A stretch of DNA of 64,000 nucleotides, taken from the NCBI GenBank assembly GCA_964387845.1, contig CAYLXA010000006.1:1-64000 (forward strand), written 5' to 3'. Position numbers and translations under genes: made by a program. Source of the stretch: an uncultured bacterium (lineage in GTDB: Bacteria; Omnitrophota; Omnitrophia; Omnitrophales; Abzuiibacteriaceae). The notes beneath the pieces were generated by a model, which had not been told where the DNA came from, searched no databases, and saw only the letters and a program-made list of their open reading frames with translations. Positions within the stretch are counted from its first letter, which is position 1, and each line of letters begins with the position of its first letter. Positions 9,899 to 48,997 of this stretch are shown in pieces.

Positions 9899-9905
9899 TT
9901 CCTTT

Positions 9906-16240: not shown

Positions 16241-17215
16241 ATGAAAAAGTTTTTTATCTTAATTCCATTGCTCCTGCTTTTGACCGGCTGCTTTGACGCT
16301 ACTTTTAATTTTAAAACAAATGTTGCTTCCGATGGTTCGATTACCCGCGAAACTAAGATAGAAGGCCGGGGCGCCGACCGCTTTTTACCGCCCGCCGGCA
16401 AGGGCTGGGAAGTCAAAACCTACCAAACTCGCGGCGGCCAGTCGGTTTTAGATGATAAATATCACCATATTTATGCGATCGGCCGTTTTAAAAATTCTTC
16501 TCAGATGGGCAGCGATTATCAATACGATTCCGAAAGCGCTTTTACCGAAGTCAGCGATGAAGAACGGCAGAATTTTATCCAGCTCGGAGTTGTAGAGCCT
16601 TTCAACGAAACCATTTATTCCAAAAATAATGTTCAGGTCGTTAAGAAGAGCGGTCTTTTCAAATCGCAATTTGAATATGCAGAGACTTTTAAAAATCAGC
16701 ACATCATCGAATTGCTTTTGAATGATTTGAAAAAGGAAGTTGTGCGCCAGCAGGAAGTCGCGGTTGAAGAAGCCGGCGCAGCTTCCGCTCCGGCCGCTCA
16801 AAACGCACAACCGGGAGAAGGCGCTGAAAAAGCCGGGGCAATCGATCCCGAAGTGCTGCCGGTTACCATTGAAGGGCAGCTTTTATCAGCTCAGAAAGTT
16901 GAGACCATTGCGCGTGAGCGATTGGACAGAGAAATCCTTTCACAATTTAAATTTCATTCCGAAGTGACTTTGCCCGGAAAGATCATTTCATCGAATGCCG
17001 ACCGCGTGCTTGGCAATACCGCAATCTGGGACTTTACCGCGAAAGATTTTAAGGGAGGCATTGCCCAGAAGACACTTTCCATTCAATCGGAAATGATCGA
17101 ATGGAAAACCATCGTTTTGCTTTCTGTTTTGGCGCTTGTGATCATTTTTGGAATCGGGTCAGCACTTACCAAGAAACCAAAAACCGGCCGTTCACGTTCA
17201 AGTAAACGGCATTGA
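16241..17215 (+). CDS. lipoprotein (lipobox LLLTGC) with a C-terminal TM helix and basic tail; hypothetical
   Basis: 'LLLLTGCFD' lipobox. C-terminal '[16 protein letters not shown]' TM plus a [14 protein letters not shown] tail. Confidence 0.5.
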
Positions 17216-25575: not shown

Positions 25576-26173
25576 AACAATTTTTGATTTTACGTTGTCT
25601 CTTTTGGCTTTAGTCGTACTATCGCCGCTTTTGCTGATTGTGTCAGCGGCTATTAAATTTGACTCAGAAGGGCCTGTCTTGTTTGTTCAAGATAGGGTCG
25701 GCCTGAACGGAAAGATTTTTAAAATTTATAAATTTAGATCCATGCTCAATAACGCACAAGATGGTTTCGGCCCCTCTGGCCGCGTGTTGACCCAAGCTGA
25801 TAACCGTATTACTAAGCTCGGAAAGTTTTTAAGGGGTTCCAGTATTGATGAAATACCGCAGTTGTGGAATGTGGTCAGGGGAGAAATGGCATTAATTGGA
25901 CCGCGGCCCGTACTTCCGGTCCAAGCAGAGCAATTCTCGGATTTTCAAAGAGAGCGCCTTCGGGTGAAGCCCGGCTTAACGGGTCTTGTGGCTGTGCGCG
26001 GCGGTTATGAGCTTTCGTGGCCGCAGCGAATCCGTTTGGATGTTTGGTATGTACGGCATCAATCTTTTGCGCTGGATTGTTACATATTTTTTAAAACAAT
26101 CGAACTGTTGATTGCCGGCCGTTCGATTTATAATTCGCAGGGAGTAAGTGAAGATTTCAAGCCCGCGAAATAA
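25556..26173 (+). CDS. small monotopic initiating phosphoglycosyltransferase (bacterial sugar transferase family, PglC/WbaP-C-terminal-like)
   Basis: ATG at 25556 (the extension from 25463 lies within the upstream CDS). Has 'RIFDF' + TM + 'GPVLF.QDRVG..GK.F...KFRSM' and 'PGLTG' motifs. Confidence 0.75.
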   Translation: MSWQAVKTIFDFTLSLLALVVLSPLLLIVSAAIKFDSEGPVLFVQDRVGLNGKIFKIYKFRSMLNNAQDGFGPSGRVLTQADNRITKLGKFLRGSSIDEIPQLWNVVRGEMALIGPRPVLPVQAEQFSDFQRERLRVKPGLTGLVAVRGGYELSWPQRIRLDVWYVRHQSFALDCYIFFKTIELLIAGRSIYNSQGVSEDFKPAK

Positions 26174-27334: not shown

Positions 27335-28000
27335 ATGCTAAATAGCCAGAGCAATTTTGATTCTATCAATTTCCGCGATTTTCTTTCCTTAATTAAAAAG
27401 CGAAAGCATATTTTTATTGTAACGTTTGTTCTTTTATTCTCGTCCTTATATTGGTGGAAAACCGCATATTTTCCGACTTTTCGGCTTCAACAGGGAATTT
27501 TAATGCGGGACGGCTCCGGCCAAATCGTTGAACCTGATTATTTATTCAATTTGAGAAAGCATTTTTTTCAAAGCGATTGGATAGTAGCTAAAATTAATTC
27601 TAGAATTCCCGATTCAACCTTAGACCATAAAACTTTACAAAAACGGTTATTGACCAAGGTGATCCCTTTCGCCGGGCCGTCTCCCAAGCATCATCAATTG
27701 GAGCGTGGGTATATTCTAGCTCTTATTGTCGATTCGGATTCTGCCGACCTTGGAAAACTTGTTTTAAGCCACTGGATTGCTGTTCTTAAAGAAGAGTTAT
27801 TGAGAATTGATGATGAAGTCGGTTTAGATTTTAAGTTCAGTGTTGCAACCGAGCCTGTATTGATTAGAAGTCGATTTACAGAGAAGCTGGAAGCAACCGG
27901 TGTTTCGTTTGCATTAGCTTTTTTGCTTTCGATATTCACAGTCGTGAGTTTCGAAATTTTTGCCAAACATAGCGGACGATCTCAAAATTTGAATTCCTAG
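27335..28000 (+). CDS. short Wzz-like (polysaccharide co-polymerase N-terminal domain) membrane protein
   Basis: 'INFRDFLSLIKKRKHIFIVTFVLLF' resembles the Wzz N-terminal motif/TM; second TM at the C-terminus; lacks the long periplasmic coiled coil. Confidence 0.35.
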   Translation: MLNSQSNFDSINFRDFLSLIKKRKHIFIVTFVLLFSSLYWWKTAYFPTFRLQQGILMRDGSGQIVEPDYLFNLRKHFFQSDWIVAKINSRIPDSTLDHKTLQKRLLTKVIPFAGPSPKHHQLERGYILALIVDSDSADLGKLVLSHWIAVLKEELLRIDDEVGLDFKFSVATEPVLIRSRFTEKLEATGVSFALAFLLSIFTVVSFEIFAKHSGRSQNLNS

Positions 28001-28013: not shown

Positions 28014-29429
28014 ATGGATATGATTTTTGGAATTATTATAATTATTTGTATTTATGCAGCGTGGATTTTCTTGACAGTAAAGTCATTCAATCACCCCCGC
28101 ATTTTATTTTTAACCTCAGTTATTCTTGTTTCATTTGTAAACTTTTCTTTTTCTGATAATGAACTTTTCAGTCGTTTTGCTATCCCCGACGTTCTTTTTG
28201 TAACGCTCTTTGGGATTTATTTATTACGCGTTGCTCTGCTCCAAAGAGAAGAAATAGTTTTGCCTAAGAGCGCCTGCTTTGTCTTATTAATTTTTATTAC
28301 CGCTATTTTCCTTTCTTTTCTAAGCGCAATTCCAGATTCTGATATGATTTTTGGCGGAGGAGAATTTCTGATCATTTTGCAAGGCATTCTTGTTTTTGTT
28401 ATGGGAGTTCATTATGTTAAAACTGAACAAGAATTTATATCGTTTCTTAAAATGTGGATGATTTCCGTGATTTTGACATCAATTGTCTGTTTTATCGATA
28501 TGGGTGATATGATTTTTGCTCCTCCCGTTATCGAGAAGCTTCCATTTGCACATAGCGGATTTTTCGGGATTTTTGACCTTCTGTCCAAACAGACTTTCAT
28601 TCATGATTTCTTGTCTCCGTGGCCTTCTAGAATTATGGGCCCGTTTCGTTCGAATGGCCAGTTGGGCAGTTATTCATTAACATCATTCTTTGTAATGCTG
28701 GCCTATCTGTATGCGCCGGGTCAAACAGCCAAAACAAAAAAAGTAATTATCTTCCTTGCTTGGTGTCTCGGAATTTTTACTTTTCTGTCTATGGCGCTGA
28801 GGTTTTTGCCTAGTTTTGCTTTAGGGCTTGGGTTGTACGCTGTTTTCACTTTCAGGAAGTCTAAAAGACAAGGTTTTATTTTGTTGTGCTTGATAGCCGC
28901 GGCCGTGCTGCTGATTGTATCGATCGCTGCTTTTAATCCGCAGCTAGTTCCAAAATGGGCTCGCGATCTTAACATCACCAACACGCAGGTGGGAACAATG
29001 GGGAGCAAGCCGCTTCGTGCATGGGCTTTGTCATCCGTGCAAGAAGCATTTCTAAATCATCCATTGTTTGGCGTTGGGTTTGGCCGTTTTATCCAATCAG
29101 ATTATATTAATTTGACGCGCGGCTTTGAAATTCATAGCACACCGCTTCAATTTCTTGCCGAAACTGGAGCGGTAGGATTTCTTGCGTACTTATTTATGAT
29201 GGCGTATTTTGGTTATCTTGCTTTTCGTAACATTGTCTTGTCTCGTTTGAATGAATGGAAGGATTTTTTTATGGTACTCGCGTTTGGAATTTTATCGCTT
29301 CCAATCAGTTACTTATATAACCGACATCTCAAAGAACGAACCTTTTGGTTTTTGTTAATCTTAATTTATGCCGGATATCGATTTTTAAATGAAAGGCGCC
29401 TGCTTCAAGGCAAAAAAATCCAGACGTGA
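28014..29429 (+). CDS. Wzy_C/O-antigen-ligase-family polytopic membrane protein (polymerase or ligase)
   Basis: ≥10 TM helices; 'EIHSTPLQFLAETGAVGFLAY' Wzy_C loop motif. Paralogue of the 42748..44124 CDS, sharing a C-terminal 'YLYNRHL(K/R)ERTFW' block. Confidence 0.5.
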   Translation: MDMIFGIIIIICIYAAWIFLTVKSFNHPRILFLTSVILVSFVNFSFSDNELFSRFAIPDVLFVTLFGIYLLRVALLQREEIVLPKSACFVLLIFITAIFLSFLSAIPDSDMIFGGGEFLIILQGILVFVMGVHYVKTEQEFISFLKMWMISVILTSIVCFIDMGDMIFAPPVIEKLPFAHSGFFGIFDLLSKQTFIHDFLSPWPSRIMGPFRSNGQLGSYSLTSFFVMLAYLYAPGQTAKTKKVIIFLAWCLGIFTFLSMALRFLPSFALGLGLYAVFTFRKSKRQGFILLCLIAAAVLLIVSIAAFNPQLVPKWARDLNITNTQVGTMGSKPLRAWALSSVQEAFLNHPLFGVGFGRFIQSDYINLTRGFEIHSTPLQFLAETGAVGFLAYLFMMAYFGYLAFRNIVLSRLNEWKDFFMVLAFGILSLPISYLYNRHLKERTFWFLLILIYAGYRFLNERRLLQGKKIQT

Positions 29430-30571
29430 AACTGTTTTCTCAAGCGTCAATGTTGGCTGATCGCTGTATCATGTTTGTGGCGGTGAAAGGATTTGCTCTT
29501 AGCAACTCAAGACTCCCTTTGATGAAGTTCTTTATTAAGCAGGGGTGGAGAGTAGTTGCGGCAACTTCCGAAGACGATCATATCAACCATTTAAAGAACG
29601 AAGGCGTCATTGTTGAACCGATTTCATTTCGAAGAGGCGGTTTTCATCCATTTTCAGATTTCCGTGCACTAATTCAATTAATCAAAGTTTATCATCGCTA
29701 TCGACCGGCTCTGATCCAGCATTTCAATGGTAAGCCGATTGTTTTAGGAAATTTTGCCGCGCTTTGTCTGAAAAAAGTACTGATTGTGAATACGGTCACA
29801 GGCCTTGGGCATGCGTTTCTGGAGATGAATTTTTCATTCCGGCTGTTTGCATGGATTTATCAATTATTTTGCAGCCGCGCGGCTGCAACTATTTTCCAGA
29901 ACGAAAGCGACTATGAAGTTTTTGTTAAAAACGGTTGGGTCAATTCAAAAAGAGCGCATGTGATTGTCAGTTCGGGAATTGATTTTGAAAGATTTATAGG
30001 TGATCCTAAAAAAAGAACCGAAACGCCCACTATTTTACTGGCAGCTCGGCTTGTCTGGATGAAAGGCATCTCTGAATTTGTGGATGCTGCCCGGGAAATT
30101 AAATCCCGATTTCCGGCTGCACGCTTTTTTTTAGCTGGCGCGCCGGATTTAATTCATCCCGATTCGATTCCCATGGACTGGGTGCGTGAACGGACCCGGG
30201 AAGGCGTGATTGAGTATTTGGGCTATGTTGAACATCCCGAGAAACTATTGCAAACCGTTTGGGTTTGCGTATTGCCGTCTTACCGGGAAGGTGTTTCAAG
30301 AATTTTACTTGAAGCAGCGGCTTGCGAAGTGCCGATCGTGGCAACCGATGTCCCGGGCTGCAGGGAAACCGTCCAAGATGGAAAAACGGGAATATTGGTA
30401 CCTCCGCGCGATCGGCAGGCTTTGGTGCAAGCAATTACAAAATTACTGCAAAACCCCAAAGAAGCTCAGAAAATGGGCGAGCAAGGAAGGCGATTTGTTC
30501 GTGACAAATTTGATGTTCACCAGATCATGCAAAAATATATTCAAATTTATCAATTGATCGGTTTGAACTGA
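29426..30571 (+). CDS. GT4-family glycosyltransferase
   Basis: 'SYREGVSRILLEAAACEVPIVATDVPGCRETVQDGKTGILV' (E-x7-E motif). Start could be a downstream ATG (29450). Confidence 0.75.
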   Translation: MKLFSQASMLADRCIMFVAVKGFALSNSRLPLMKFFIKQGWRVVAATSEDDHINHLKNEGVIVEPISFRRGGFHPFSDFRALIQLIKVYHRYRPALIQHFNGKPIVLGNFAALCLKKVLIVNTVTGLGHAFLEMNFSFRLFAWIYQLFCSRAAATIFQNESDYEVFVKNGWVNSKRAHVIVSSGIDFERFIGDPKKRTETPTILLAARLVWMKGISEFVDAAREIKSRFPAARFFLAGAPDLIHPDSIPMDWVRERTREGVIEYLGYVEHPEKLLQTVWVCVLPSYREGVSRILLEAAACEVPIVATDVPGCRETVQDGKTGILVPPRDRQALVQAITKLLQNPKEAQKMGEQGRRFVRDKFDVHQIMQKYIQIYQLIGLN

Positions 30572-31434
30572 TGTCCGTACTTGATAAGCCCGTTTTTATT
30601 GTCGGAGCACCCAGATGCGGCAAAAAAATGACAGCAGAAGTTCTTGCCAGGGACTCGTCTGTGTATGCTTTTCAGTATGAAATGAATTTTTTGTGGCGTT
30701 ATGGTCACGCAGCGTTTCCGCACGATCGGCTGACTCCCCAAATGTTGTCCAATGATATCAAGACCTACATCCAAGATCAATTTACAGGGGTGCTAGGCAA
30801 GCATGGTAAACTGCGCATTGTGGACCGGACAGATCATAATGTGGTTCGCCTTGATTATGTCAACGCTGTTTTCCCGGACAGTTTTTTCATTTTTGTCGTG
30901 CGGGACCCGCGAGCTGCAGTTGCTTCCGCTATCCGGCGCCGGCAAGAGAAAGTTGGCTTCGTTCCTTATCTCAAGAAGTCGTTAACGGTTCCGACGCGGG
31001 ATTTGATATATTATGGCTTTCGGTATTTGAGTGACATTGCGCAAGCGCGGCTCAGAAAAAACGGCTATAAGAATTTGTGGGGCATTCGAACGCCGCAAAC
31101 TCTATCTTTAAGTCCCGAAAGCTCATTGGCCGAGAAATGCGCAGTACAGTGGAAGGAATGTGTACTGGCAGGCCTGCAATTTTCAAAAACATTTCCGCCG
31201 GAACGGTTTCTGATCGCTCGGTATGAGAAGTTAACCAGAGATCCGGTTGGTGAATTTAAGCGGATATTTGATTTTGCCGCTCTGTCTTGGAATTCTGAAA
31301 TTGCAAAGTGGGTGACCGAGAATGTTCATACTAATAGTATGGATAAATGGAAACAGCAGTTAAGCGATGACGATTTGCTGCAAGTACAATTACACACAAA
31401 AGATCTGGCGCAACGATTAAGTTACTCATTTTAA
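30571..31434 (+). CDS. sulfotransferase-family protein (Sulfotransfer_3-like)
   Basis: P-loop-like 5'-PSB 'GAPRCGKKMT' near the N-terminus and a 3'-PB-like 'VVRDPRAAVAS'. Confidence 0.55.
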   Translation: MSVLDKPVFIVGAPRCGKKMTAEVLARDSSVYAFQYEMNFLWRYGHAAFPHDRLTPQMLSNDIKTYIQDQFTGVLGKHGKLRIVDRTDHNVVRLDYVNAVFPDSFFIFVVRDPRAAVASAIRRRQEKVGFVPYLKKSLTVPTRDLIYYGFRYLSDIAQARLRKNGYKNLWGIRTPQTLSLSPESSLAEKCAVQWKECVLAGLQFSKTFPPERFLIARYEKLTRDPVGEFKRIFDFAALSWNSEIAKWVTENVHTNSMDKWKQQLSDDDLLQVQLHTKDLAQRLSYSF

Positions 31435-31444
31435 CTTCAATTTT

Positions 31445-32110
31445 ATGAATAAAGATTGGACCCACGAATTTCATGCAAGGTTTCATCCAAAAGGATTGAG
31501 TCTTGGTGAGCGGTTTTTTAAGAGAGCATTTGACATTACGGTGGCAATACTTGGTTTATGTTTAACGTGGTGGGTTATTGTGATTGCATTTATTTTGGCT
31601 TGGCTTGATACCAGGCAATCGGGTTTTTTTGTTCAAAATCGCGTGGGATATCGTGGAAAATTATTCAAACTTCTAAAAATAAGGTCAATGCGGGATAATC
31701 CTGCCATTAAAACAACCGTAACAACCGCTAATGATCCACGTATTACAAAGTTAGGCAAGTTCTTCAGAAAGACCAAAATTGACGAACTGCCGCAACTTTT
31801 TAATGTTCTGTGGGGAGATATGACCTTGGTGGGCCCGAGGCCTGATGTTATGGGGTTTGCAGATCGTTTAGAAGGAGATGATCGAATCATTCTCTCCATT
31901 CGTCCCGGGATTATTGGTCCGGGCACGCTCAAATATTTGTATGAAGAAGAAGAGTTGGCCCGACAGTCGAATCCGGAACAGTATAATCGCGAAGTTATTT
32001 TTCCGGATAAAGTCAGGCTGAATCGCGCATATATTGAAAACTATTCTTTCTGGAACGATCTCAAATATATTTATAAAACCTTGCAACGCATTAAATACCA
32101 TCAACAATAA
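31445..32110 (+). CDS. second small initiating phosphoglycosyltransferase (bacterial sugar transferase family)
   Basis: 'RAFDI' + TM + 'GFFVQNRVGYRGKLFKLLKIRSM', 'ELPQLFNVLWGDMTLVGPRP' motifs; paralogous to the 25556..26173 CDS. Confidence 0.75.
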   Translation: MNKDWTHEFHARFHPKGLSLGERFFKRAFDITVAILGLCLTWWVIVIAFILAWLDTRQSGFFVQNRVGYRGKLFKLLKIRSMRDNPAIKTTVTTANDPRITKLGKFFRKTKIDELPQLFNVLWGDMTLVGPRPDVMGFADRLEGDDRIILSIRPGIIGPGTLKYLYEEEELARQSNPEQYNREVIFPDKVRLNRAYIENYSFWNDLKYIYKTLQRIKYHQQ

Positions 32111-32128
32111 TTCTCAAAAAGGATCCGT

Positions 32129-33106
32129 ATGGGTATTTCAGGTTTAAAGAAGGTTGATATTATTGCGACAGTGGGCCCAAGGTCGTTGTCTAAGCAAGTT
32201 ATTTGTGACATGATTGATGCGGGCGCCTCTATCTTGCGGATCAACGGATCGCATGAGAATTTGGAAAGCATTCGAGTTTGTGCTAGCCAGCTACGCAAAT
32301 GGATGGGCAAGCGCGCTAAAATCTTAGTAGATATTCCGGGCAATAAGATCAGGACCATGCATTTGGGCGACCCTATTATTTTGAAACCCGGAAAAGAAAT
32401 TCAGCTTTTCAAGCATCAGGTTAATTTCCCCGGTTTTTTTAAATTGCTCAGAAAGGGTGACACCATTCTGGCGAATGACGGCTTGGTCAGGTTCAAGGTG
32501 CAAAAACCATCCGGCGAGGCAATTGTATTTAAATCAGAAACGGAAGGAAAGCTTGAGAATAATAAAGGATTCCACGTATCACGAAAACTTTCCTTACCGT
32601 TTTTGTTTGAAAAGGATATCCAGATTTTTAAATTAGCCAAACAAATTGGAATCGATTTTGTCGGTCTTTCATTTGTACGCTCGGCGGACGATGTTCGAGA
32701 GGCAAGGCAATATTTCAAGAATAGTAAAACCAAGCTTTTGGTCAAGGTCGAAACCCGGGGTGCGGTTGACCGGCTTGAAGAAATATTGGCGGAATCCGAT
32801 CAAATTTTGATTGACCGGGGCGATCTTGCGGCTGAAATTGGTTTTGAAAATGTTTCATGTGTTCAAACTAAAGTAATCAGCGCTGCCAAGAAGAGAAAAG
32901 TCCGCGTTGCATTGGCAACGCAGTTTCTGCACAGTATGGTTGATCGCGATGTTCCTTTGATTGCTGAGGTGGATTCGCTTTATTACGCAATCCGATCAGG
33001 GATTGATGCCGTTCAAGTATCGGAAGAAACTTCGATTGGCCGGTTTCCCGAAAAAGTAATTCGAGTTTTAACTACCATGATTCAGCAAAGCAAGAGAAAA
33101 GTTTAG
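32129..33106 (+). CDS. pyruvate-kinase-like barrel-domain protein lacking the C-terminal regulatory domain
   Basis: 'KIIATVGPRS', 'RINGSHE' (cf. NFSHG), 'ILVDIPGNKIRT', 'VKVETRGAV', 'IDRGDLAAEIG' all align to PK catalytic motifs. Only 325 aa against ~470 for canonical PK. Confidence 0.55.
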   Translation: MGISGLKKVDIIATVGPRSLSKQVICDMIDAGASILRINGSHENLESIRVCASQLRKWMGKRAKILVDIPGNKIRTMHLGDPIILKPGKEIQLFKHQVNFPGFFKLLRKGDTILANDGLVRFKVQKPSGEAIVFKSETEGKLENNKGFHVSRKLSLPFLFEKDIQIFKLAKQIGIDFVGLSFVRSADDVREARQYFKNSKTKLLVKVETRGAVDRLEEILAESDQILIDRGDLAAEIGFENVSCVQTKVISAAKKRKVRVALATQFLHSMVDRDVPLIAEVDSLYYAIRSGIDAVQVSEETSIGRFPEKVIRVLTTMIQQSKRKV

Positions 33107-33108
33107 GC

Positions 33109-34053
33109 ATGATTGCTCGCTATTTCAAGAAGGCGCTGGAATATAGCCGGCTAATTCCTATTTGGGAAGAATTTTTATGGCAGAAATCCTACATGGAAGC
33201 CTCTGCGTCGTCGCGGCTATCGGATTTGCGTTCTTTGTGTTTTATGGTTGGACCCAACCGCAATTTGGCCTCTCTCGTAGCGTTGCTTATTTACTTACAT
33301 AAGAACGGGGAAGCCGTGAACCATGCGGGTAGCCGTATTTTTCCTAAAAAAGAAATTGATATTTGGCATCAATGTTCCGAGAACCGTTTTGATTTATTTT
33401 GCCGCTATCTTGAATTTCTTTCGAGCCGCGGAATGCGAGGGCAGACAGGGGGATCTATTCGCTACTCAAATGCTGTGGCAGATCACCCTGAAGCCAAGCA
33501 GCTTGTGCTCAATCGATTTCCGGATTTAAACCGCCGGTCGCCTGTCCATGCGTTGGTGTGGAAAGAGCCTTTAATGATTTACAAGTTTCTGGCTAGCGAT
33601 GGAATGAAGACTGTAGAGTTGTTAAAGTGCTATCAAAAAATTAAGTTGCTTTTGCCGGTTAGAAATCCTCTGGATTGCGCCATTTCAAATAAGAATTTAG
33701 GAGAACGTTGGCTTAAGCGGGCCTATGGCCTTACCGATTTTAGTCTCGAGTCGGTTCTAGAAGCTTTATTTAAGATATATCATTCATTTTTTACATGGAG
33801 TAAAACGTACCCGGGTCGGTGCATGGCGCTGTTTGAGAACGAATGCTCTGAAAATACGCTGAGCCAACTGGCGCAATTTCTCTCCCTAGAGCATGATCCT
33901 GCATGGATTGTGGATTGTTTGCAGGTTTGGAAAGTCAATCAGCACTATCGGTGGGAAAAGTCATGGCTGGAATACTATAAAATTTTGTGCGATCGTTATT
34001 TCTCAGATGTTCCCGAGATTAAAAATCGGTTTTTATTAATGGTAGGATCTTGA
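33109..34053 (+). CDS. hypothetical protein, possibly divergent sulfotransferase (RNPLD 3'-PB-like motif)
   Basis: 'LLLPVRNPLDCAISNK' resembles the sulfotransferase 3'-phosphate-binding motif (RNPKD/RDPRD). No clear 5'-PSB loop was found. Confidence 0.3.
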   Translation: MIARYFKKALEYSRLIPIWEEFLWQKSYMEASASSRLSDLRSLCFMVGPNRNLASLVALLIYLHKNGEAVNHAGSRIFPKKEIDIWHQCSENRFDLFCRYLEFLSSRGMRGQTGGSIRYSNAVADHPEAKQLVLNRFPDLNRRSPVHALVWKEPLMIYKFLASDGMKTVELLKCYQKIKLLLPVRNPLDCAISNKNLGERWLKRAYGLTDFSLESVLEALFKIYHSFFTWSKTYPGRCMALFENECSENTLSQLAQFLSLEHDPAWIVDCLQVWKVNQHYRWEKSWLEYYKILCDRYFSDVPEIKNRFLLMVGS

Positions 34054-34072
34054 AAATCAGGAGTATGGGCTT

Positions 34073-34969
34073 ATGCTAGAATTAAAATCTACCGCTTCAT
34101 ATGTTGAGACGATCCGGAGCAGACGCGCGGGCCTTAAGTTCAATTTTATCCGATCGGCGCTTTCGAAATTCTATAACCAACTATGCCTAAGATTCGAAAA
34201 TCAGTTTTTCATTTCGTTTCCAAAATGCGGGCGGACATGGTTGCGCTTCTTTCTTGCGAAATACATCGCAGATAAGTACCAAGTTCCTTTCATGCTGGAT
34301 CATTCGGTTGTCATGCGCGCCCTGAGCTTTGGAACCGGATTTAACTTTGCGCCTCATTTTCATTTTACACATTCAGGTTTTGATGTTCCCGATAAGAATC
34401 AATTTAATAAAATAGCAAAAGCGTTTCGAGGTAAAAAAATCCATTTTCTCATCCGGGATCCAAGAGATGTGGTTATTTCGTACTATTGGCACTATCAAAA
34501 AAGACAGAAGCGATTGAATAAGGATGTTCCACGCGATACGCCGCTTTCGGTTTTTCTGCGTCATCCGGAGGTCGGAATTTCTCAAATCATTGAATTCATG
34601 AACCGTTGGTATGATCAGAGAGGAGACTTTAGTCAATTTTCAATTTGGTGTTACCAGGATTTTAAAAAAGATTCCGGTTTGTTATTTAAAAAGCTTTTGG
34701 AAGGCGTTGGAGAAGGGAAGATTGATCAAGAAGTTTTTGAAAATGCGCTGCAATATTCTAACTTCGATAACATGCGGGCAATGGAATTGAATCAAAAAAT
34801 TAAAGATCCTATGTTGCGCACGCTTGATACGGGCGATCCTGAGGCATTCAAAGTGAGGCGGGGTGTTATCGGGGGATATCGTGACTACTTTTCAAAAGAA
34901 GATCTTGTATTTGCCAATTCGGAAATGGCCAAACTGAATACTAATTTTGGTTACTCGGTTGATCGATAG
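34073..34969 (+). CDS. sulfotransferase (Sulfotransfer_1-like; PAPS-dependent)
   Basis: 5'-PSB 'FPKCGRTWL' (cf. PKSGTTW) and 3'-PB 'FLIRDPRDVVISYYWHY'. Confidence 0.7.
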   Translation: MLELKSTASYVETIRSRRAGLKFNFIRSALSKFYNQLCLRFENQFFISFPKCGRTWLRFFLAKYIADKYQVPFMLDHSVVMRALSFGTGFNFAPHFHFTHSGFDVPDKNQFNKIAKAFRGKKIHFLIRDPRDVVISYYWHYQKRQKRLNKDVPRDTPLSVFLRHPEVGISQIIEFMNRWYDQRGDFSQFSIWCYQDFKKDSGLLFKKLLEGVGEGKIDQEVFENALQYSNFDNMRAMELNQKIKDPMLRTLDTGDPEAFKVRRGVIGGYRDYFSKEDLVFANSEMAKLNTNFGYSVDR

Positions 34970-34981: not shown

Positions 34982-35860
34982 ATGGCTTTTCATTGTTTCT
35001 CGGTCGACGTAGAGGGGTTTTGCGAGTCAAACTCCGAGTCGTTCACCGTCCCATCTGGATTAATCGCCAATCGATCGGAGTTAGACGAAATTCAGGCAAA
35101 TATTGAAACGACACTTCAGCTGCTCTCACAATTTCATGTGAAAGCAACTTTTTTTTGTTTGGGTCATTTGGCTTCTCAACGGCCGGAAATTATTAGGGCC
35201 ATAGCAAATGAGAAACATGAAATCGGTTCGCACGGTTATTGGCACAAACGGTTGTTCAATTTAAAGTCGGCGGATCTTGCGGAGTCAATTATCCGATCCA
35301 AAGAAGAACTCGAACAAGTATCCGGCCAAAAAGTTCTCGGTTTCAGGGCGCCCGATTTTTCAATTCAAGCAAGTAATATAAAAGTGTTAGATCTTATTCA
35401 AAAAGCTGGTTACTTGTATGATTCCTCAATTTATCCAATTTCCATGCACGATGTTTACGGTATTCCGGGGGCCAGAAGAGACCTTCATCAATTGGCCAAT
35501 GGAATGATCGAGTTTCCGCCGTCCTCTATCCGTTTCTTAGGTGTGTCCTTTCCGGTTCTTGGAGGCGGATATTTTCGTTTGGCGCCCTTGTGGGTTTCGC
35601 GCTTGGCACTGAAACATTTTACGAGGGCCGGAATGCCTGCGATGATGTATCTCCATCCATACGAAATAGGAGACCGATTTCCCCAAGTTTCCAACCTGTC
35701 TCCTTACCGGAAGTTTCGTCATTATATCAATCTATCAAAAGGAAAGCGCAGACTTCAGTCCATTTTTAAAGAACACAAATTTTATCCGGCAGCAGAATTC
35801 GTTAGTTCCTTCCAAACAGCAAATTCAACACTAAAAGGCAATGTCGATACTTCAAATTAA
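34982..35860 (+). CDS. polysaccharide deacetylase family protein of the PEP-CTERM/exosortase-locus type (NodB-like + DUF3473)
   Basis: 'FSVDVEGF', 'HEIGSHGYWH' NodB motifs; the C-terminal 'GGGYFRL.P' block is typical of the XrtA-locus deacetylase subfamily. Confidence 0.6.
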   Translation: MAFHCFSVDVEGFCESNSESFTVPSGLIANRSELDEIQANIETTLQLLSQFHVKATFFCLGHLASQRPEIIRAIANEKHEIGSHGYWHKRLFNLKSADLAESIIRSKEELEQVSGQKVLGFRAPDFSIQASNIKVLDLIQKAGYLYDSSIYPISMHDVYGIPGARRDLHQLANGMIEFPPSSIRFLGVSFPVLGGGYFRLAPLWVSRLALKHFTRAGMPAMMYLHPYEIGDRFPQVSNLSPYRKFRHYINLSKGKRRLQSIFKEHKFYPAAEFVSSFQTANSTLKGNVDTSN

Positions 35861-35926: not shown

Positions 35927-36556
35927 ATGAAATACGGTTTACGTTCAGCTATTGCACATCTTCAAATCGAGGGGCTTGGGGCTTTCTTGCTTCGTGCTTT
36001 TCAGATTTTTCTTCGATTATTTTATTATGATATGAAAGCCGAGCTTTTATCGCTTGATTTTAAGCAGCCCTTTTCATTCTCGCATGGTAAAACCTCGCTC
36101 CAAATAGACAAATTGGCTGACGGCGATATCAAGGCTTTGTCTAAAATTACGATGTATGATGAATCGGAAATTCAGAGGAGGCTTCACCGGGGTCAATTTT
36201 GCATGATCGCAAAAGTTGACGGCAATATTGTGCATTACTCATGGGTAACCCGTGAAGTTCAGCAGGCTGACGAAATAGAATCGACACTTCAATTCCAACC
36301 CGGTTGTTTCTATATCTACAACTGCAGAACCCTAAAAAAATTTCGCGGGCTTGGAATTTTTCCGAGCGTGCTTGGTCAAATCATTCATGAAACAAAAGCG
36401 AGGGGAGCATCCAAGGCTTATGCGTTAGTCACGTCTATGAATCATGCCTCAAAGCGCTCATTTTCTAAACTTCATTTTCTGCCTGAGCGAGAATTTAGAG
36501 TAACGCGGATTTTATTCTGGTATTTTGGAAAGCATCAAAACTTATACAGGATTTAA
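35927..36556 (+). CDS. GNAT-fold acyltransferase-like protein
   Basis: 'CRTLKKFRGLGIFPSVLGQII' resembles the GNAT motif A (R/Q-x-x-G-x-G/A). GTG at 35918 is an alternative start. Confidence 0.35.
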   Translation: MKYGLRSAIAHLQIEGLGAFLLRAFQIFLRLFYYDMKAELLSLDFKQPFSFSHGKTSLQIDKLADGDIKALSKITMYDESEIQRRLHRGQFCMIAKVDGNIVHYSWVTREVQQADEIESTLQFQPGCFYIYNCRTLKKFRGLGIFPSVLGQIIHETKARGASKAYALVTSMNHASKRSFSKLHFLPEREFRVTRILFWYFGKHQNLYRI

Positions 36557-37592
36557 ATTTTTGATTACGATCAAAATTTATCAAAAAAATCTACCGGACA
36601 GCTGGGATCAATTGGTTGATGATTGCGCCGGCAGTTGGTATTTTAAATCGAGATGGAAGCGCGTCCTGGACGCTGTTTACAATCACCCAAGTTATTATTT
36701 AGCAGCGGAAGAAACCGGCAAGCTGGTCGGTATCTTGCCCTTGATGTTGGGCGGGAATCTTTTATTCGGGCGTTTTTTGGTTTCTCTTCCTTATTCCTGT
36801 TACGGCGATATTTGCACAAAAGATGCCAATGCGCGAAGTGCTCTTTTGCAAAAAGCGAAGGAAATCGCTCGGTCGCACGGTGTGGAATATTTACAAATTC
36901 GGTCTCAGCATCCGGTTGGCGACCGAGATTTCGTGACCATTTCTGATAAAGCTACTTTTCAATCCGCACTTAATTCCAGTCCTGATTTGTGGTGGGAACG
37001 CCTTTCTGATGATGCTAAACGAGATGTCCGGAAAGCTTTATCGGCCGGCTGTGAAGTCAGAATAGGCGGAAAAGAGTATCTCGATGATTTTTATCACGTT
37101 TTTTGCCGCAGAATGCAGGAATTGGGCTCGCCGGTATATGGGAAAAATCTTTTTCATAAAGTAATCGATATTTTTCAGGATGATGCCAAGATTGTTTTGG
37201 TTTCAAAAGGGGAAAAACCTATTGGCGCCGGTTTTTTGATGATTGATCGGCAAAATATAGAAATACCTTGGTCTGCGTCTTTGGCTTCGGAATTTAAACA
37301 TAAGCCAAACCATTTGATATATTGGAAAGCGGTTCAGTATGGCTTTGAGCGCCGTTGCCGCATGATTGACTTCGGAACTTCTAATCAGGATTCGCCAAAT
37401 GCCGCATTCAAATTGCAGTGGTGCGCACAAAAAATCCCATTGGCATGGTCTTATTACCCTGTCAGGCAGAAAAGGCTTAGTCTCTTAAGTCCCAAAAATC
37501 CTAAATTCAAACTTGCGATTGAGCTTTGGAAAAAACTACCTCCGCCGGTTGCTGATTTCATAGGGCCAAAACTAATTCGCGGCATTCCATAA
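36525..37592 (+). CDS. FemAB-family (GNAT-fold) protein of the type associated with PEP-CTERM EPS loci
   Basis: ~350 aa; FemAB/acetyltransf_6-like pattern. Overlaps the upstream ORF, so the true start may be downstream. Confidence 0.5.
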   Translation: MESIKTYTGFKFLITIKIYQKNLPDSWDQLVDDCAGSWYFKSRWKRVLDAVYNHPSYYLAAEETGKLVGILPLMLGGNLLFGRFLVSLPYSCYGDICTKDANARSALLQKAKEIARSHGVEYLQIRSQHPVGDRDFVTISDKATFQSALNSSPDLWWERLSDDAKRDVRKALSAGCEVRIGGKEYLDDFYHVFCRRMQELGSPVYGKNLFHKVIDIFQDDAKIVLVSKGEKPIGAGFLMIDRQNIEIPWSASLASEFKHKPNHLIYWKAVQYGFERRCRMIDFGTSNQDSPNAAFKLQWCAQKIPLAWSYYPVRQKRLSLLSPKNPKFKLAIELWKKLPPPVADFIGPKLIRGIP

Positions 37593-41392: not shown

Positions 41393-42718
41393 TTACGACC
41401 TTTTGATCGGCCATTTTTTCTTCCAGTAAGCCAAGACCTCTTTCTCCATAGACAGGGAAAATAGATATGGCCACTCAATATATTCCTTGGAATTAATAAA
41501 ATAGAGTTGAAAGGTCGTGATTACCATTGTGCTGAGAATGTTTGCGCAAGCAGCGCCGTGGGCTTGAAATTTCGGAATGAGAAATAAATTCAGAACAAGT
41601 GATACAGCGAGTCCTAAAAAATTTGAGATAGCCATTAGCCCGCTTTTCTTTTCCAGCAAAAGGATGATGTTGCAGGTTTGGCTCGGAATGCCGACCAATG
41701 AAGAAATTCCCACAAGAGCGAATAAACCCACTTGGGAACTATAGTCCTTTGGCACTAACTGCGGAATGAGCTGGATTGCCCCCACAATACCCATAATCAC
41801 AATTGCTTGAAAAATAATGCGTGTTTTAACAATAGACATCAGTAATCGATTGCGCTTCTTGATTGCTTGTTGGTCGTGGGCTTCAAAGATATATGGAACA
41901 ATCGTAATTTGATTAAATCTTTCGGAAGCATCAAAGAGCGTGCTAAAAAAATGGTAAGGTGCTAATACGCTTAATGAGGTAATGGCCCCCAGAAGGTATC
42001 GATCGTAGTATTGCCACACCTTTTTTCCCACATCTCCAAAACAAATCGGAAATCCATAGCGGAGACCGCTTTTTATGAATTGTAAATTGGGAACGGAGAA
42101 GGGTTGGATTTTGTACTTACTTAAAAACCAGATAAAAATTGCTAGAAAACTAAAACTCCAGGTCCAGGTAACCGTGTAAATAGTAACCGGCCCAATCAAA
42201 AGAGCTGCGATCATAAAAACCAACCAGAACGCGACTTGCAATATAGTGATATTGTTAAATTCCTTTATCTGTTTTGAATAATTGAAGTAAATCTGGAGCA
42301 GAGGAAAAAGACCGGATAAAAATAGAAGAAAAGACAAATTAAAAAAGAGCTGACCGGACAAGTTGAAATCAATCATGGCGGATATTGTGTCAATTGGTAT
42401 GAAAATCAAGATGAGTACCAGGAGGCAAAGCATTGAAGCTAATTGAAGAAAATTTGAGTATTGAAAATACAGGACCCGGCTTTCCTGGTTCAAAGCCGGA
42501 ATTTCTCTGCGTAAATAATCGCCCCATCCCAAATCCGAAACCGCCATCCACATTCCCATAGTAGCAACAAAAAGGCTGTAGAAGCCGTATTCAGTACTTG
42601 TCAGCTGCCGGACAAGAAAAATGGCCAAGCAGCCTTTTAAGCCGATTGTAATTACTCGAGACACGGTCGAGTGGATGTACTGGCCGATAATGGTGGTTTT
42701 AATTGAGCTCATGAGCAA
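41393..42718 (-). CDS. Wzx-like polysaccharide flippase (MOP/MATE superfamily)
   Basis: ~12 TM helices, 441 aa, N-terminal pattern typical of PST-family flippases. Confidence 0.5.
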   Translation of the reverse strand: MLMSSIKTTIIGQYIHSTVSRVITIGLKGCLAIFLVRQLTSTEYGFYSLFVATMGMWMAVSDLGWGDYLRREIPALNQESRVLYFQYSNFLQLASMLCLLVLILIFIPIDTISAMIDFNLSGQLFFNLSFLLFLSGLFPLLQIYFNYSKQIKEFNNITILQVAFWLVFMIAALLIGPVTIYTVTWTWSFSFLAIFIWFLSKYKIQPFSVPNLQFIKSGLRYGFPICFGDVGKKVWQYYDRYLLGAITSLSVLAPYHFFSTLFDASERFNQITIVPYIFEAHDQQAIKKRNRLLMSIVKTRIIFQAIVIMGIVGAIQLIPQLVPKDYSSQVGLFALVGISSLVGIPSQTCNIILLLEKKSGLMAISNFLGLAVSLVLNLFLIPKFQAHGAACANILSTMVITTFQLYFINSKEYIEWPYLFSLSMEKEVLAYWKKKWPIKRS

Positions 42719-44127: not shown

Positions 44128-45357
44128 TTAATGGCGTCTGTTTTGTTGAGTGATGATAGAAATCAATAGAACGCTCAGGCAAGACAGTAAAAAAGAGTTC
44201 GACAGTGATAATGCAATCGAAGAAATTAAAAAATCCCTTCGTGAGAAAACCACTTTTGGCTCGTCCATATTTTCAAATCTAAAAATTTTTGGCTTGGTAG
44301 ATTCGATTTCTTTGAAGAGAGAGTTTTGGCTTTCGGTGACGGCATTTTTATCCGCTTGAAGCGTGTCAAGCCGTGCTATCGTATTTTGCAACTCTGCTTT
44401 GGTATGCTGCAAAAACGATTTAAAAGACGAAGTGTGTGTGGCGAAGTTTATAGAAAGAGCCTCCGATATACTGATAAGCCCCTGGACCACAAGATTTAAA
44501 TTTGATTCCAAATCGTTAAGTTCTCGCCCTATCTTGGTTTTTGTAGCCTGTTCAAAATTTCGAAGCAATGTGCTTTCGGACTGATGATTTAACAAATGGC
44601 GGGACAATTGAATAGCGTTTTGAGCACTTTCCAAAACCTGCTTGGGATAATCGGTGCTCAAAGCTTTTAACTGAAGTTCAGCTTTAAGCAATTGATTGAT
44701 CAGTTTGTCGCTTTGTTCGGTCGTGACGAGCGAACGTTCTTTGAGATTGGCTAAAGTAGGTGCATTGAAACGGTTGAGAATTTCATTCATTTGCGCATCG
44801 ATTTCTTTCTCTTTTTGAAAAAATCTGGACTGTTCTGCCTTCAGTTCTTCAACGTAAAGTTTAAGATTTTCCAGCTCTTCCTCATGCTCCTGATAACAAA
44901 CCTCAGTCCACGCCTGTAAAACTTTTGACGCTATTTCTTGATTCGGATGCTGAACATAAAAGATGATCATATAAGCATTTACGTATTTGCCGTTTGAGGC
45001 CGGCATATTTCCAATGTCTTGGAGCTTAATCGAGATCGCATTGGATATTTGGCTGTTGCTGAGTTTGATATTTTGTTCTTCGAGTTTAAATCTTGTTTCC
45101 GTGATGATTTGGGGCTCGTGCAAGAAAAGGAGCCTGAGATTTAAAAGATGGGAGTAATTAATGTAAGCCATCTCGCTTTTTGCGAAATATTTTTTTTCTA
45201 ATTTCGGGCCTTTGAATTGATAAAACTGATACCCAAAAGAAAGAGCAAACGCGACGAAGGAGAGAGAAATGAAAAGGACTTTCTTTTGCCAAAAAAAAGC
45301 AATGAGTGTCCGTAAATCAATAGGATCTTGCAATTTCTTTGTCTCAAGTCTGTTCAT
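44128..45357 (-). CDS. Wzz/polysaccharide co-polymerase (chain-length determinant) family protein
   Basis: N-terminal 'IDLRTLIAFFWQKKVLFISL' + TM, a long heptad/coiled-coil periplasmic region, and a C-terminal TM. Confidence 0.5.
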   Translation of the reverse strand: MNRLETKKLQDPIDLRTLIAFFWQKKVLFISLSFVAFALSFGYQFYQFKGPKLEKKYFAKSEMAYINYSHLLNLRLLFLHEPQIITETRFKLEEQNIKLSNSQISNAISIKLQDIGNMPASNGKYVNAYMIIFYVQHPNQEIASKVLQAWTEVCYQEHEEELENLKLYVEELKAEQSRFFQKEKEIDAQMNEILNRFNAPTLANLKERSLVTTEQSDKLINQLLKAELQLKALSTDYPKQVLESAQNAIQLSRHLLNHQSESTLLRNFEQATKTKIGRELNDLESNLNLVVQGLISISEALSINFATHTSSFKSFLQHTKAELQNTIARLDTLQADKNAVTESQNSLFKEIESTKPKIFRFENMDEPKVVFSRRDFLISSIALSLSNSFLLSCLSVLLISIITQQNRRH

Positions 45358-48992: not shown

Positions 48993-48997
48993 TGGAT

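Follow-up and report, generated by a model that had tools for sequence, protein, structure and literature searches.

The main new point of the segment at 30571–34969 is a short pyruvate-kinase-like gene, whose subfamily is tightly linked to PAPS synthesis through gene fusions and operons, and which points to a so far undescribed helper enzyme for bacterial sulfation. The segment lies in a polysaccharide island within a 64 kb stretch of DNA (hereafter, the window) from an uncultured Omnitrophota bacterium, and it probably constitutes a decoration module, with sulfotransferases sulfating the polysaccharide repeat unit and the pyruvate kinase (PK) supporting PAPS supply. Directly observed are domain and fold assignments, motif conservation, operon structure, and gene-fusion and gene-neighbourhood statistics.

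All five ORFs described in the earlier note for this segment were recovered at the same coordinates, all on the + strand, in the order ST-A, Bac_transf, PK-like gene, ST-X and ST-B. Intergenic distances of −1 to 19 nt across the segment support its reading as a single operon, and the same gene order, with intact ORFs and 64–80% amino-acid identity gene by gene, was seen in a related metagenome contig. The stop of the preceding GT4 gene overlaps the start of ST-A by 1 nt (gap −1 nt), so that both are probably translationally coupled. The segment and its surroundings comprise the following features:

28014..29429, + strand: Wzy_C-type membrane protein, putative polymerase or ligase, 5' of the segment (Pfam Wzy_C, 3.5e-09)
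29426..30571, + strand: GT4 glycosyltransferase (Pfam Glycos_transf_1, 3.3e-33)
30571..31434, + strand: ST-A, Sulfotransfer_3 / TPST-like, PAPS-dependent sulfotransferase, 287 aa (Sulfotransfer_3, 73.9 bits)
31445..32110, + strand: small monotopic polyprenyl-phosphate glycosyl-phosphotransferase (Bac_transf, 3.4e-51)
32129..33106, + strand: short pyruvate-kinase-like protein, 325 aa (PF00224, 201 bits; PK barrel, 3.4e-59)
33109..34053, + strand: ST-X, predicted sulfotransferase-fold protein of an unmodelled family, 314 aa
34073..34969, + strand: ST-B, cytosolic-SULT-type (Sulfotransfer_1) sulfotransferase, 298 aa (51.6 bits)
34982..35860, + strand: XrtA-system-type polysaccharide deacetylase, next gene of the operon (Pfam Polysacc_deac_1 and DUF3473)
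36525..37592, + strand: FemAB-family XrtA/PEP-CTERM system-associated protein (TIGR03019, 280.3 bits, cut-off 260.35)
41393..42718, − strand: Wzx-type flippase (Pfam Polysacc_synt, 6.2e-18)
47332–50167, strand opposite to the PK-like gene: NeuB, NeuC and CMP-transferase

The matches at 31445..32110 and 32129..33106 bear out the earlier description of a second initiating sugar transferase and a pyruvate-kinase-like gene interleaved with the sulfotransferases; the island's first Bac_transf gene lies at 25463–26173. The second also matches TIGR03025 (7.4e-56), under that model's cut-off, and the deacetylase scores 242 bits with TIGR03006, not reaching the cut-off of 276. The TIGR03019 match places the island among XrtA/PEP-CTERM-associated EPS loci. 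Altogether, the glycan genes in the window include GT4, two phosphoglycosyl transferases, Wzy_C proteins, Wzx, sugar-nucleotide enzymes, the TIGR03019 protein and NeuB/NeuC/CMP-transferase.

The PK-like protein consists of the A and B domains only, aligning to residues 1–337 of the 470 in E. coli PykF and leaving PykF residues ~338–470 unmatched; NCBIfam pyruvate-kinase cut-offs are not reached. The C-terminal domain that it lacks serves allosteric regulation in pyruvate kinases and forms part of the tetramer interface. The catalytic set is intact, with all canonical PK catalytic residues kept, and R37, N39, D68, K73, R75, K206, E208, D232, T264 and E300 are invariant across the family (n = 44). 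The B domain is shortened, and the motif on the nucleotide side, DLPGNK(I/V)R, is unusual, with Pro114 invariant in the family. At the equivalent of rabbit-muscle residue 117 the window protein has Lys, a signature of K+-independent enzymes.

The link to PAPS synthesis comes from the relatives of this protein. Among its 120 best homologues, 27 are PK::APS-kinase fusions, and 80 metagenome loci of PK relatives contain Sat-type ATP sulfurylase (56), APS kinase (42) and CysQ (12). The usual order is APS kinase, sulfurylase, PK and often CysQ: Sat lies directly upstream of PK on the same strand in 37 of 51 non-redundant metagenome loci with sufficient upstream DNA, and 7 of the 54 loci whose downstream DNA extends far enough have CysQ directly after PK. 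Named examples of this context include Malaciobacter halophilus, Thalassomonas viridans (TauE, APS kinase, Sat, PK, CysQ, adjoining Sulfotransfer_2) and an Oligoflexia MAG (Sat, PK::APS kinase, Sulfotransfer_1). When 150 neighbours of PK-bearing PAPS modules are ranked by Pfam family, sulfotransferases come first, and the closest relatives of the window PK all adjoin sulfotransferases, one of them a GT4::Sulfotransfer_3 fusion. A sub-clade of ~8 loci has no Sat. We found no description of a PK as a member of bacterial PAPS-synthesis modules in the literature searched.

Within the window itself, Pfam or NCBIfam scans of the main ORFs (at least 150 aa) detected no sat, cysC, cysDN or cysQ, and a six-frame scan with purpose-built HMMs (E ≤ 10) detected no APS kinase, Sat-type ATP sulfurylase, CysQ or TauE; for CysDN, the absence refers to the family scans only. 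The earlier statement that no PAPS-supply genes are visible thus stands for cysC, cysDN and sat, but misses the PK-like gene tied to PAPS supply. With none of these genes in the window, PAPS availability in the host is assumed, and Sat, CysC and CysQ would be encoded elsewhere in the host genome.

The earlier note had reported PSB and 3'-PB motifs in two of the three sulfotransferase-like genes, and both sets were found in the translations. ST-A (FIVGAPRCGKKMT, IFVVRDPRAAVAS) carries GAPRCGKK as the PSB motif and VVRDPRAAVAS as the 3'-PB motif, and exceeds the Pfam thresholds of Sulfotransfer_3 (cut-off 27) and Sulfotransfer_1 (37.1 bits, cut-off 22); its alignment with TPST2 covers the 3'-PB segment. 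A weak match of ST-A to NoeE was also seen. ST-B (SFPKCGRTWLRF, FLIRDPRDVVISYY) carries the full SULT signature, namely PKCGRTW, the His in FTHSG, RDPRDVVIS and RRGVIGGYRDYF, passes the Sulfotransfer_1 cut-off of 22 bits, and gives end-to-end alignments to human SULT2A1 and its relatives (best E 2.6e-10); the positions that agree with SULT2A1 are PKxGxxW, the catalytic His, RxPRDVxxS and RxGxxGxY/W. PAPS-binding residues are accordingly kept on alignment to solved enzymes in both ST-A (TPST2, 3'-PB) and ST-B (SULT2A1).

The HMM searches that placed these two genes gave no match for the third, and at the sequence level ST-X matched none of the sulfotransferase models searched; profile comparison with ST-A was marginal (E 0.021). 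The RNPLD 3'-PB-like motif reported for it is nevertheless present in the translation (LLPVRNPLDCAISN), as part of PVRNPLDCAIS (R185, S193), together with a PSB-like strand-loop-helix, GPNRNLAS (R51), and an invariant K152. Its predicted fold is that of a sulfotransferase, with modest Foldseek TM-scores (0.38–0.46), and we propose that ST-X belongs to a new, unmodelled sulfotransferase-fold family. Across that family (n = 110), K152, P183, R185 and S193 are invariant, while R51 is kept in 109/110, N52 in 109/109 and H72 in 108/110. Canonical sulfotransferases are the commonest immediate neighbours of the family in 80 GTDB genomes (Sulfotransfer_3, 10; Sulfotransfer_1, 10; Sulfotransfer_2, 4; out of 128 neighbours), and five fusion proteins combine the ST-X domain with Sulfotransfer_1, _3 or _4. 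We infer that ST-X is catalytically active. Position 121 is His in 102 of 110 family members but Asn in the window copy, and this copy could be catalytically altered.

In the mechanism that we propose, the module would belong to a Wzx/Wzy-dependent polysaccharide locus with XrtA/PEP-CTERM-associated markers. The presence of a Wzx flippase implies assembly of the repeat unit on the cytoplasmic face, and sulfation would take place there too, ahead of export: with PAPS as donor, cytoplasmic ST-A, ST-B and ST-X would sulfate the lipid-linked unit at different hydroxyl or amino positions, with flipping and polymerisation following. The product would be an EPS or O-antigen-like glycan that is sulfated at several positions. 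The co-transcribed PK most likely recycles ADP to ATP for APS kinase at the expense of PEP. Such recycling would keep APS kinase out of the inhibitory ADP/APS dead-end complex and pull the unfavourable ATP-sulfurylase step forward, for a net conversion of APS + PEP to PAPS + pyruvate. In one in vitro system, efficient PAPS synthesis needed PK and PEP, as ADP otherwise traps APS kinase (PMC9885120).

It is unlikely that the PK instead serves sugar chemistry, as PEP balance for NeuB-type nonulosonic acid synthesis or pyruvylation, or as phosphorylation of a sugar/glycerate-type substituent. The PEP consumer NeuB occurs in the window and NeuB-like genes in 10 of 80 PK loci, so a PEP-related role outside sulfation is possible; the NeuB, NeuC and CMP-transferase set recurs near a 53%-identical relative, the window lacks Sat and APS kinase, and a Binatia MAG relative (44% identity), flanked by GT4 and CDP-alcohol phosphatidyltransferase genes, sits in a polysaccharide locus in which neither a sulfotransferase nor a sulfurylase lies within 7 kb. 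NeuB is, however, far outnumbered in the PK loci by Sat and APS kinase, and here it lies 15 kb away on the opposite strand, whereas the PK gene sits between sulfotransferases. The physical fusions to APS kinase, and a PK cassette in an NRPS cluster without sugar genes, also argue for sulfation. Action on a sulfonucleotide, that is, PEP-dependent phosphorylation of PAP, AMP or APS as a salvage or short-cut to PAPS, is very unlikely: the short B domain, odd nucleotide-side motif and Pro114 would fit it, as would the adjacency of the closest clade to sulfotransferases, which make PAP, and not to APS kinase, which makes ADP, but the canonical catalytic residues are all kept, the fusion partner is a complete APS kinase that the PK does not replace, and PAP-destroying CysQ is found in, and sometimes directly downstream in, the same modules.

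Similar questions concern the sulfotransferases. ST-X might be an inactive paralogue that serves a canonical sulfotransferase as partner, scaffold or specificity subunit, with two sulfations only; this appears doubtful. The missing HMM match, the Asn at the His121 position and the deviations at Y50 and P65, shared by the window copy and a 66%-identical relative, point that way, and the frequent adjacency or fusion to canonical sulfotransferases resembles a partner subunit. Yet the expected PAPS-binding residues (R51, N52, K152, R185, S193) are all kept in the window copy, many family members have no adjacent canonical sulfotransferase (a Wzm/Wzt-side locus; most of the 80 GTDB loci), and multi-sulfated products normally have tandem active sulfotransferases, in keeping with an active ST-X. 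As for the acceptor, we infer that it is the polysaccharide; the earlier prediction of a sulfated polysaccharide gains support from the position of the sulfotransferase genes inside the island, the product being predicted only. ST-A and ST-X find their best structural and sequence matches among protein-tyrosine sulfotransferases, PqqD-like peptide-recognition domains occur as fusions in two members of the ST-X family, and the island has XrtA/PEP-CTERM-associated markers, all of which would suit another target, such as a lipid, a peptide (through tyrosine sulfation) or secreted PEP-CTERM proteins. Such a target is nonetheless improbable: the genes are translationally packed among GT4, phosphoglycosyl transferase and polysaccharide deacetylase, glycan-synthesis genes dominate the neighbours of the PK-like and ST-X families, a close PK relative adjoins the GT4::sulfotransferase fusion, and the operon yielded neither a precursor peptide nor a PEP-CTERM gene.

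Compared with known enzymes, ST-B shares all SULT signatures and the whole aligned domain with SULT2A1 and its relatives, but is bacterial, has 44 extra N-terminal residues and is located in a polysaccharide operon. ST-X is only 13–16% identical to TPST1/2 (PDB 3ap3, 5wri), has no HMM match to Pfam Sulfotransfer_3, and differs in the family-specific motifs NHAG, GGSIxxSHA and WKE, which have no described counterpart, and in an acceptor that is probably glycan and not protein. The window PK has the A/B-domain barrel and all catalytic residues of PykF but lacks the whole C-terminal domain, carries the invariant Pro114, and belongs to a family whose genomic context is PAPS synthesis and not glycolysis; with K+-independent PKs it shares Lys117 and a hydrophobic residue at 113 (PMC4374775, PMC8835810). 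Its relatives are embedded in, or fused to, genes of bacterial PAPS modules (Sat or CysDN, CysC and CysQ), whereas the window PK travels with sulfotransferases, without Sat or CysC. The proposed logic is that of engineered one-pot PAPS synthesis, where PK clears ADP, keeps APS kinase from entering its dead-end complex and improves the PAPS yield (PMC9885120); that artificial in vitro cascade uses commercial muscle PK, whereas the arrangement here appears natural and genetically fixed. Sulfated polymers are represented by the xss/synechan EPS cluster of Synechocystis PCC 6803 (PMC8205485), the capsule of Cobetia marina (PMC11766843) and GAG-like exopolymers of Pontiella (PMC7356697). These clusters, too, are Wzx/Wzy-type loci with PAPS-type sulfotransferase genes among glycosyltransferases, and in them, as here, sulfation is predicted on the cytoplasmic lipid-linked unit. 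In the present case, sulfation is predicted from genes alone and the host is an uncultured Omnitrophota bacterium, not a cyanobacterium or marine heterotroph; its operon differs from those clusters in that the three sulfotransferase-fold genes represent as many families, including an unmodelled one, and in the PK-like gene inside.

The sulfotransferase or sulfotransferase-like genes ST-A, ST-X and ST-B lie in a run of seven forward-strand ORFs between 29.4 and 35.9 kb, separated by intergenic gaps of -1 to 19 nt, which also includes a pyruvate-kinase-like gene (PK).

Open reading frames of the 29.4-35.9 kb segment
29426-30571, + strand: first ORF, GT4 glycosyltransferase
30571-31434, + strand: second ORF, ST-A
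31445-32110, + strand: third ORF, small Bac_transf phosphoglycosyl transferase
32129-33106, + strand: fourth ORF, pyruvate-kinase-like gene
33109-34053, + strand: fifth ORF, ST-X
34073-34969, + strand: sixth ORF, ST-B
34982-35860, + strand: seventh ORF, polysaccharide deacetylase

The segment is surrounded by a polysaccharide island (16-57 kb of the window) encoding sugar enzymes (GDP-mannose dehydratase, PglF-like dehydratase, DegT aminotransferase and an asparagine-synthase-type amidotransferase), several GT4 and GT2 glycosyltransferases, three Wzy_C-type proteins and one Wzx flippase, as well as methyltransferases, SGNH/AlgX-type proteins and a NeuB/NeuC/CMP-transferase set. The XrtA/PEP-CTERM-associated FemAB marker TIGR03019 scored above its NCBIfam cut-off (280.3 against 260.35), while TIGR03006, TIGR03088, TIGR03013 and TIGR03108 scored below theirs, and no exosortase gene was found among the scanned ORFs of the window. 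We also considered a recent horizontal insertion of the segment; GC content at 30-36 kb (0.42-0.45) equals that of the flanks, and there is therefore no evidence for such an event. A related JGI metagenome contig (Ga0268299_1000056, 440 kb) has identical gene order, with every ORF intact and 64-80% amino-acid identity per gene.

Several other features of the window were recorded. An 843-aa fusion (23044-25575), also kept in the JGI relative, joins an N-terminal Wzy_C/O-antigen-ligase-like membrane domain to a C-terminal GT4 domain. The nonulosonic (sialic-like) acid set on the reverse strand (47332-51696) comprises a CMP-transferase (CTP_transf_3), NeuB and a NeuC-type UDP-GlcNAc 2-epimerase, followed by a Capsule_synth-like protein, so that the window glycan probably also carries a nonulosonic acid. 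Five island ORFs of 221-409 aa have no Pfam match (16241-17215, 27335-28000, 44128-45357, 45470-46381 and 56271-57233); the first two have no NCBIfam match either, and none of the five matched the sulfotransferase, ST-X or PAPS-gene profiles built here. At the far edge of the island (58450-61896) are a radical SAM/SPASM protein, an NAD-dependent epimerase and a spore-photoproduct-lyase-like radical SAM protein; radical SAM genes make up 8 of the 150 other neighbours of the PK cassettes described below. Outside the island, a menaquinone (futalosine-route) run at 6470-10601 encodes a UbiA prenyltransferase, a UbiX-like flavoprotein, MqnA-like (VitK2_biosynth) and MqnC (radical SAM, CofH_C) proteins and a UbiE methyltransferase, and all named best matches of MqnC (67-72% identity) belong to Candidatus Omnitrophota.

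An earlier note had proposed, from motifs binding the sulfate donor PAPS (PSB and 3'-PB), that all three genes encode sulfotransferase-like proteins, and the motifs it quoted are all present in the translations. For ST-A and ST-B the family assignment was borne out by HMM searches. ST-B passed the gathering threshold of Pfam Sulfotransfer_1 (PF00685; 51.6 bits against 22) and ST-A those of Sulfotransfer_3 (PF13469; 73.9 bits against 27) and Sulfotransfer_1 (37.1 bits against 22), and both would be named sulfotransferases by standard annotation. The PAPS-binding residues were likewise recovered on alignment. ST-B aligned over the whole domain with human SULT2A1 (3f3y), matching it at the PSB loop (PKCGRTW with PKSGTNW), the catalytic His (FTHSG with SSHLP), the 3'-PB (RDPRDVVIS with RNPRDVLVS) and the C-terminal loop of RKGxxGxWK type (RRGxxGxY in ST-B), where RRGVIGGYRDYF corresponds to RKGVSGDWKNHF. 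ST-A has a GxPRSGTT-type PSB loop at residues 12-19 (GAPRCGKK), its nearest solved relatives are tyrosylprotein sulfotransferases (TPSTs), and its VVRDPRAAVAS aligned with MVRDGRASVHS of TPST2 at the 3'-PB. No obvious hydrophobic N-terminal segment was seen by eye in the translations of ST-A, ST-X and ST-B; judging from the type of pathway, the three enzymes would act on an Und-PP-linked repeat unit ahead of Wzx flipping.

ST-X has no Pfam or NCBIfam match at E ≤ 0.01, and family profiles of 6 and 110 members retrieved no sulfotransferase from PDB sequences with hmmsearch at E ≤ 10. With hhalign, the ST-X family profile gave a marginal alignment to ST-A centred on the 3'-PB (E = 0.021), and a shallow ST-X profile gave nothing useful. 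After the empty Pfam, NCBIfam and PDB profile searches, a sequence-level tie to known sulfotransferases was given up, which leaves fold, motif position and genomic context as the grounds for the assignment. The AlphaFold model is confident (pLDDT 82.9, pTM 0.84) and has the three-dimensional fold of sulfotransferases: the top 50 Foldseek matches were all sulfotransferases (best E = 4.8e-6), with modest TM-scores of 0.38-0.46 that mark ST-X as a divergent version of this fold. Thus the third sulfotransferase-like gene stood by fold and failed by HMM.

How widely the family is distributed depended on the search used. A word-indexed search of 5.8 billion proteins returned five homologues besides ST-X itself, an exhaustive profile search 401 representatives at 50% clustering, and a pattern scan of the genomes of 185,579 species 101 confirmed relatives from many phyla, with cultured carriers including Methylococcus capsulatus Texas and Litoribrevibacter euphylliae; the best match among GTDB representatives reached 35%. 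Across 110 members, K152, P183, R185 and S193 are invariant, and G48, R51, N52, H64, H72, G114, G115, W151 and W266 are at least 98% conserved. R51 (109/110 members) and N52 (109/109) fall in a strand (42-46), loop and helix (51-62), and the invariant R185 and S193 in a second element, a strand (178-184) followed by a helix (187-195). In the model, R51 appears to occupy the strand-loop-helix where sulfotransferases have the PSB loop, and the R185/S193 element resembles a 3'-PB; from these positions we infer that the three residues are equivalents of PAPS ligands. TPSTs, too, have Arg instead of Lys at the PSB position. Residue 121 (motif GGSIxxSHA) is His in 102 of 110 members; the window copy has Asn there, as does a relative 66% identical to it. 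The same two proteins also deviate at Y50 (Asn) and P65 (Lys in the window copy). Asn121 and these other deviations could reflect altered catalysis or another acceptor in this sub-lineage.

The genomic context of the family also points to sulfotransfer. Five proteins join the ST-X domain to a canonical Sulfotransfer_1, _3 or _4 domain, and two join it to glycosyltransferase-like domains. Among 128 immediate neighbours in 80 genomes, the top Pfam families were Sulfotransfer_3 (10), Sulfotransfer_1 (10) and Sulfotransfer_2 (4), with glycosyltransferases and methyltransferases ranking next; one homologue adjoins a Wzm/Wzt O-antigen exporter. A part in donor supply was rejected, as HMMs for APS kinase, the ATP sulfurylase Sat, TauE and PK found none of these in the 80 GTDB ST-X loci, and CysQ in one. 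From the modelled fold together with this context, we conclude that ST-X belongs to a sulfotransferase family modelled in no database, the activity of the window copy being predicted. Two of the fusion proteins (P0028 and P0030) combine an ST-X family domain, a canonical Sulfotransfer_3 domain and PqqD-like domains, the last serving RiPP pathways in peptide recognition. In combination with the TPST-like fold, these fusions suggest peptides, and not glycans, as the acceptors of some family members.

The pyruvate-kinase-like gene of the segment encodes a short protein (325 aa) that passes the cut-off for the PK barrel (PF00224; 201 bits against 30) and falls below those of the NCBIfam pyruvate-kinase models (TIGR01064, 260.6 against 306.4; PRK05826, 271 against 432). 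It aligned with residues 1-337 of the 470 of E. coli PykF, and thus has the A and B domains and lacks the C-terminal alpha/beta domain. The catalytic positions of PykF are matched by R37, N39, D68, K206, E208, D232 and T264, none of which varies among 44 relatives. K73, within the motif DLPGNK(I/V)R, is also invariant; it is equivalent to rabbit-muscle position 117, where Lys marks K+-independent PKs (PMC4374775, PMC8835810). All three motifs of the subfamily (DLPGNK[IV]R, ATQ[FI]L and Q[LMV]SEET) are present in the window PK. A neighbour-joining tree, rooted on PykF as the only outgroup and carrying no support values, placed it inside the short-PK family, in a basal clade shared with three further loci; all adjoin sulfotransferases, one of the neighbours being a GT4::Sulfotransfer_3 fusion. 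The next clades hold the APS-kinase fusions and the classical cassettes.

The relatives of this protein link it to PAPS synthesis. Fusions of PK to APS kinase (~500 aa; MCO5141930.1 is one example of such a fusion) account for 27 of the 120 best homologues of the window PK. Scanning metagenomes with the subfamily-specific motifs returned 80 loci carrying a short PK. Sat-type ATP sulfurylase is encoded in 56 of them, APS kinase in 42 and a CysQ-type phosphatase in 12, usually in the order APS kinase, Sat, PK and sometimes CysQ. Once duplicates and short contigs had been removed, Sat lay directly upstream of PK on the same strand in 37 of 51 loci, and APS kinase was present in 27 of 42. The top Pfam families among 150 other neighbours of these PK modules were Sulfotransfer_3 (9) and Sulfotransfer_1 (7), and sugar-nucleotide and glycosyltransferase genes were also frequent. 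Related arrangements occur in Malaciobacter halophilus CP031218 (APS kinase, TauE, Sat and PK in order), in an Oligoflexia MAG (Sat, PK::APS kinase and Sulfotransfer_1, with a CysQ-like gene further along) and in Thalassomonas viridans CP059734 (504958-519923), where Sulfotransfer_2, two unrelated genes, TauE, APS kinase, Sat, PK and CysQ lie inside an NRPS cluster. The last arrangement predicts that this cultured bacterium makes a sulfated non-ribosomal peptide. Three Cupin_8/JmjC-like genes adjoin the same cluster. We found no description of the association between PK and APS kinase in the literature, of which subscription journals were incompletely covered.

Individual loci showed further partners. 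In one (L090, 3570-5651), a 694-aa GT4::Sulfotransfer_3 fusion lies directly downstream of a short PK 47% identical to the window PK; from its domains, this fusion looks like a one-polypeptide enzyme that would add a sugar and then sulfate it. The short PK is directly followed by a gene for a Na_H_Exchanger-family (CPA) membrane protein in L111 and L094; in L085 such a gene lies on the opposite strand, two positions further down. These membrane proteins may serve the PK module as a transporter partner not recognised so far. Immediately upstream of PK in L111 is a gene for a TauD dioxygenase, which carries a taurine-catabolic annotation. An apparently shared novel 634-aa component upstream of PK in L088 and L105 was discarded after BLASTP showed the proteins to be unrelated.

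A biochemical reason for this association can be proposed. APS kinase uses ATP and releases ADP. ADP and APS together are reported to trap the enzyme in a dead-end complex, and in the same study an in vitro cascade yielded hardly any PAPS without PK and PEP to clear ADP (PMC9885120). With PK and APS kinase in one polypeptide or expressed together, ADP would be removed likewise in vivo, for a net reaction of APS + PEP -> PAPS + pyruvate. Removal of ADP by PK would, in addition, help to draw the unfavourable sulfurylase equilibrium towards product. The missing allosteric C domain would fit a PK that does not answer to glycolytic effectors.

The window PK itself sits with consumers of PAPS, the sulfotransferases, and not with its producers. 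The earlier note had remarked that no PAPS-supply genes are visible, which is correct insofar as cysC, cysDN, sat and cysQ are all missing from the 64-kb window, but misses the tie of the PK-like gene to PAPS supply. The adjacent Sat and APS kinase genes that characterise a cassette are likewise missing, and the clade of the window PK travels with sulfotransferases instead; look-ups with the edge genes of the window, which reached a 52 kb Logan contig and a 1.6 kb fragment, revealed no new sulfur genes. One further PK clade of about eight loci is without Sat, although sulfotransferase genes occur in two of these and a neighbouring TauD gene in one. In a Binatia MAG (JAQWRY010000088), a short PK (7001-7993) 44% identical to the window PK lies between GT4 and CDP-alcohol phosphatidyltransferase genes of a Wzy-type locus with no sulfotransferase, Sat or APS kinase within 7 kb, and is therefore unexplained by a PAPS-support role. 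A minor rival explanation is that the short PK has a PEP-related role in nonulosonic acid synthesis, in keeping with the NeuB-like genes of the window and of 10 of the 80 short-PK loci, a set in which Sat and APS kinase are the recurrent partners. We favour PAPS support, and hold with moderate confidence that the window PK has this same function, relocated to a sulfotransferase operon.

Taken together, we think it slightly better than an even bet that a dedicated PK without the C domain and with a K+-independent signature is an unrecognised fourth component of bacterial sulfate activation. Present as a fusion with APS kinase or as a member of APS kinase-Sat-PK(-CysQ) cassettes, it would make PAPS synthesis PEP-driven; the module would be portable, serving both glycan and natural-product sulfation, and in one lineage, including the window PK, would have moved beside sulfotransferases, among them ST-X of the new family. 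The original reading of the sulfotransferase genes in the polysaccharide island as signs of a sulfated glycan is supported at the level of sequence and predicted structure, subject to two changes: the assignment of ST-X comes from its fold and not from an HMM, and the PK is tied to PAPS supply. From the locus, the surface glycan of this Omnitrophota-like bacterium is predicted to be multiply sulfated; we found no report of sulfated polysaccharides in Omnitrophota in the literature.

Sulfated polysaccharides (heparin-like, carrageenan-like) are valuable, and the cost and supply of PAPS are a main bottleneck in producing them. The cultured Thalassomonas viridans and Malaciobacter halophilus offer a compact natural PAPS cassette that would recycle its own ATP and could serve engineering directly. 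Both the PK-PAPS link and the ST-X family are directly testable in cultured bacteria. About 400 representative ST-X proteins have no Pfam or NCBIfam assignment and are called hypothetical where named, and the source-record names of short PKs include 'pyruvate kinase' and 'hypothetical protein'; such labels hide sulfation capacity in metagenomes.

Bacteria able to produce sulfated polysaccharides are described as scarce in a recent paper (PMC13125312). Sulfotransferase genes in bacterial EPS/CPS loci are already known from Synechocystis (synechan), Cobetia and Pontiella, and the window locus is of the same kind in a new lineage. What goes beyond these known sulfated-EPS loci is the recurrent PK component of PAPS cassettes, together with the unmodelled ST-X family.
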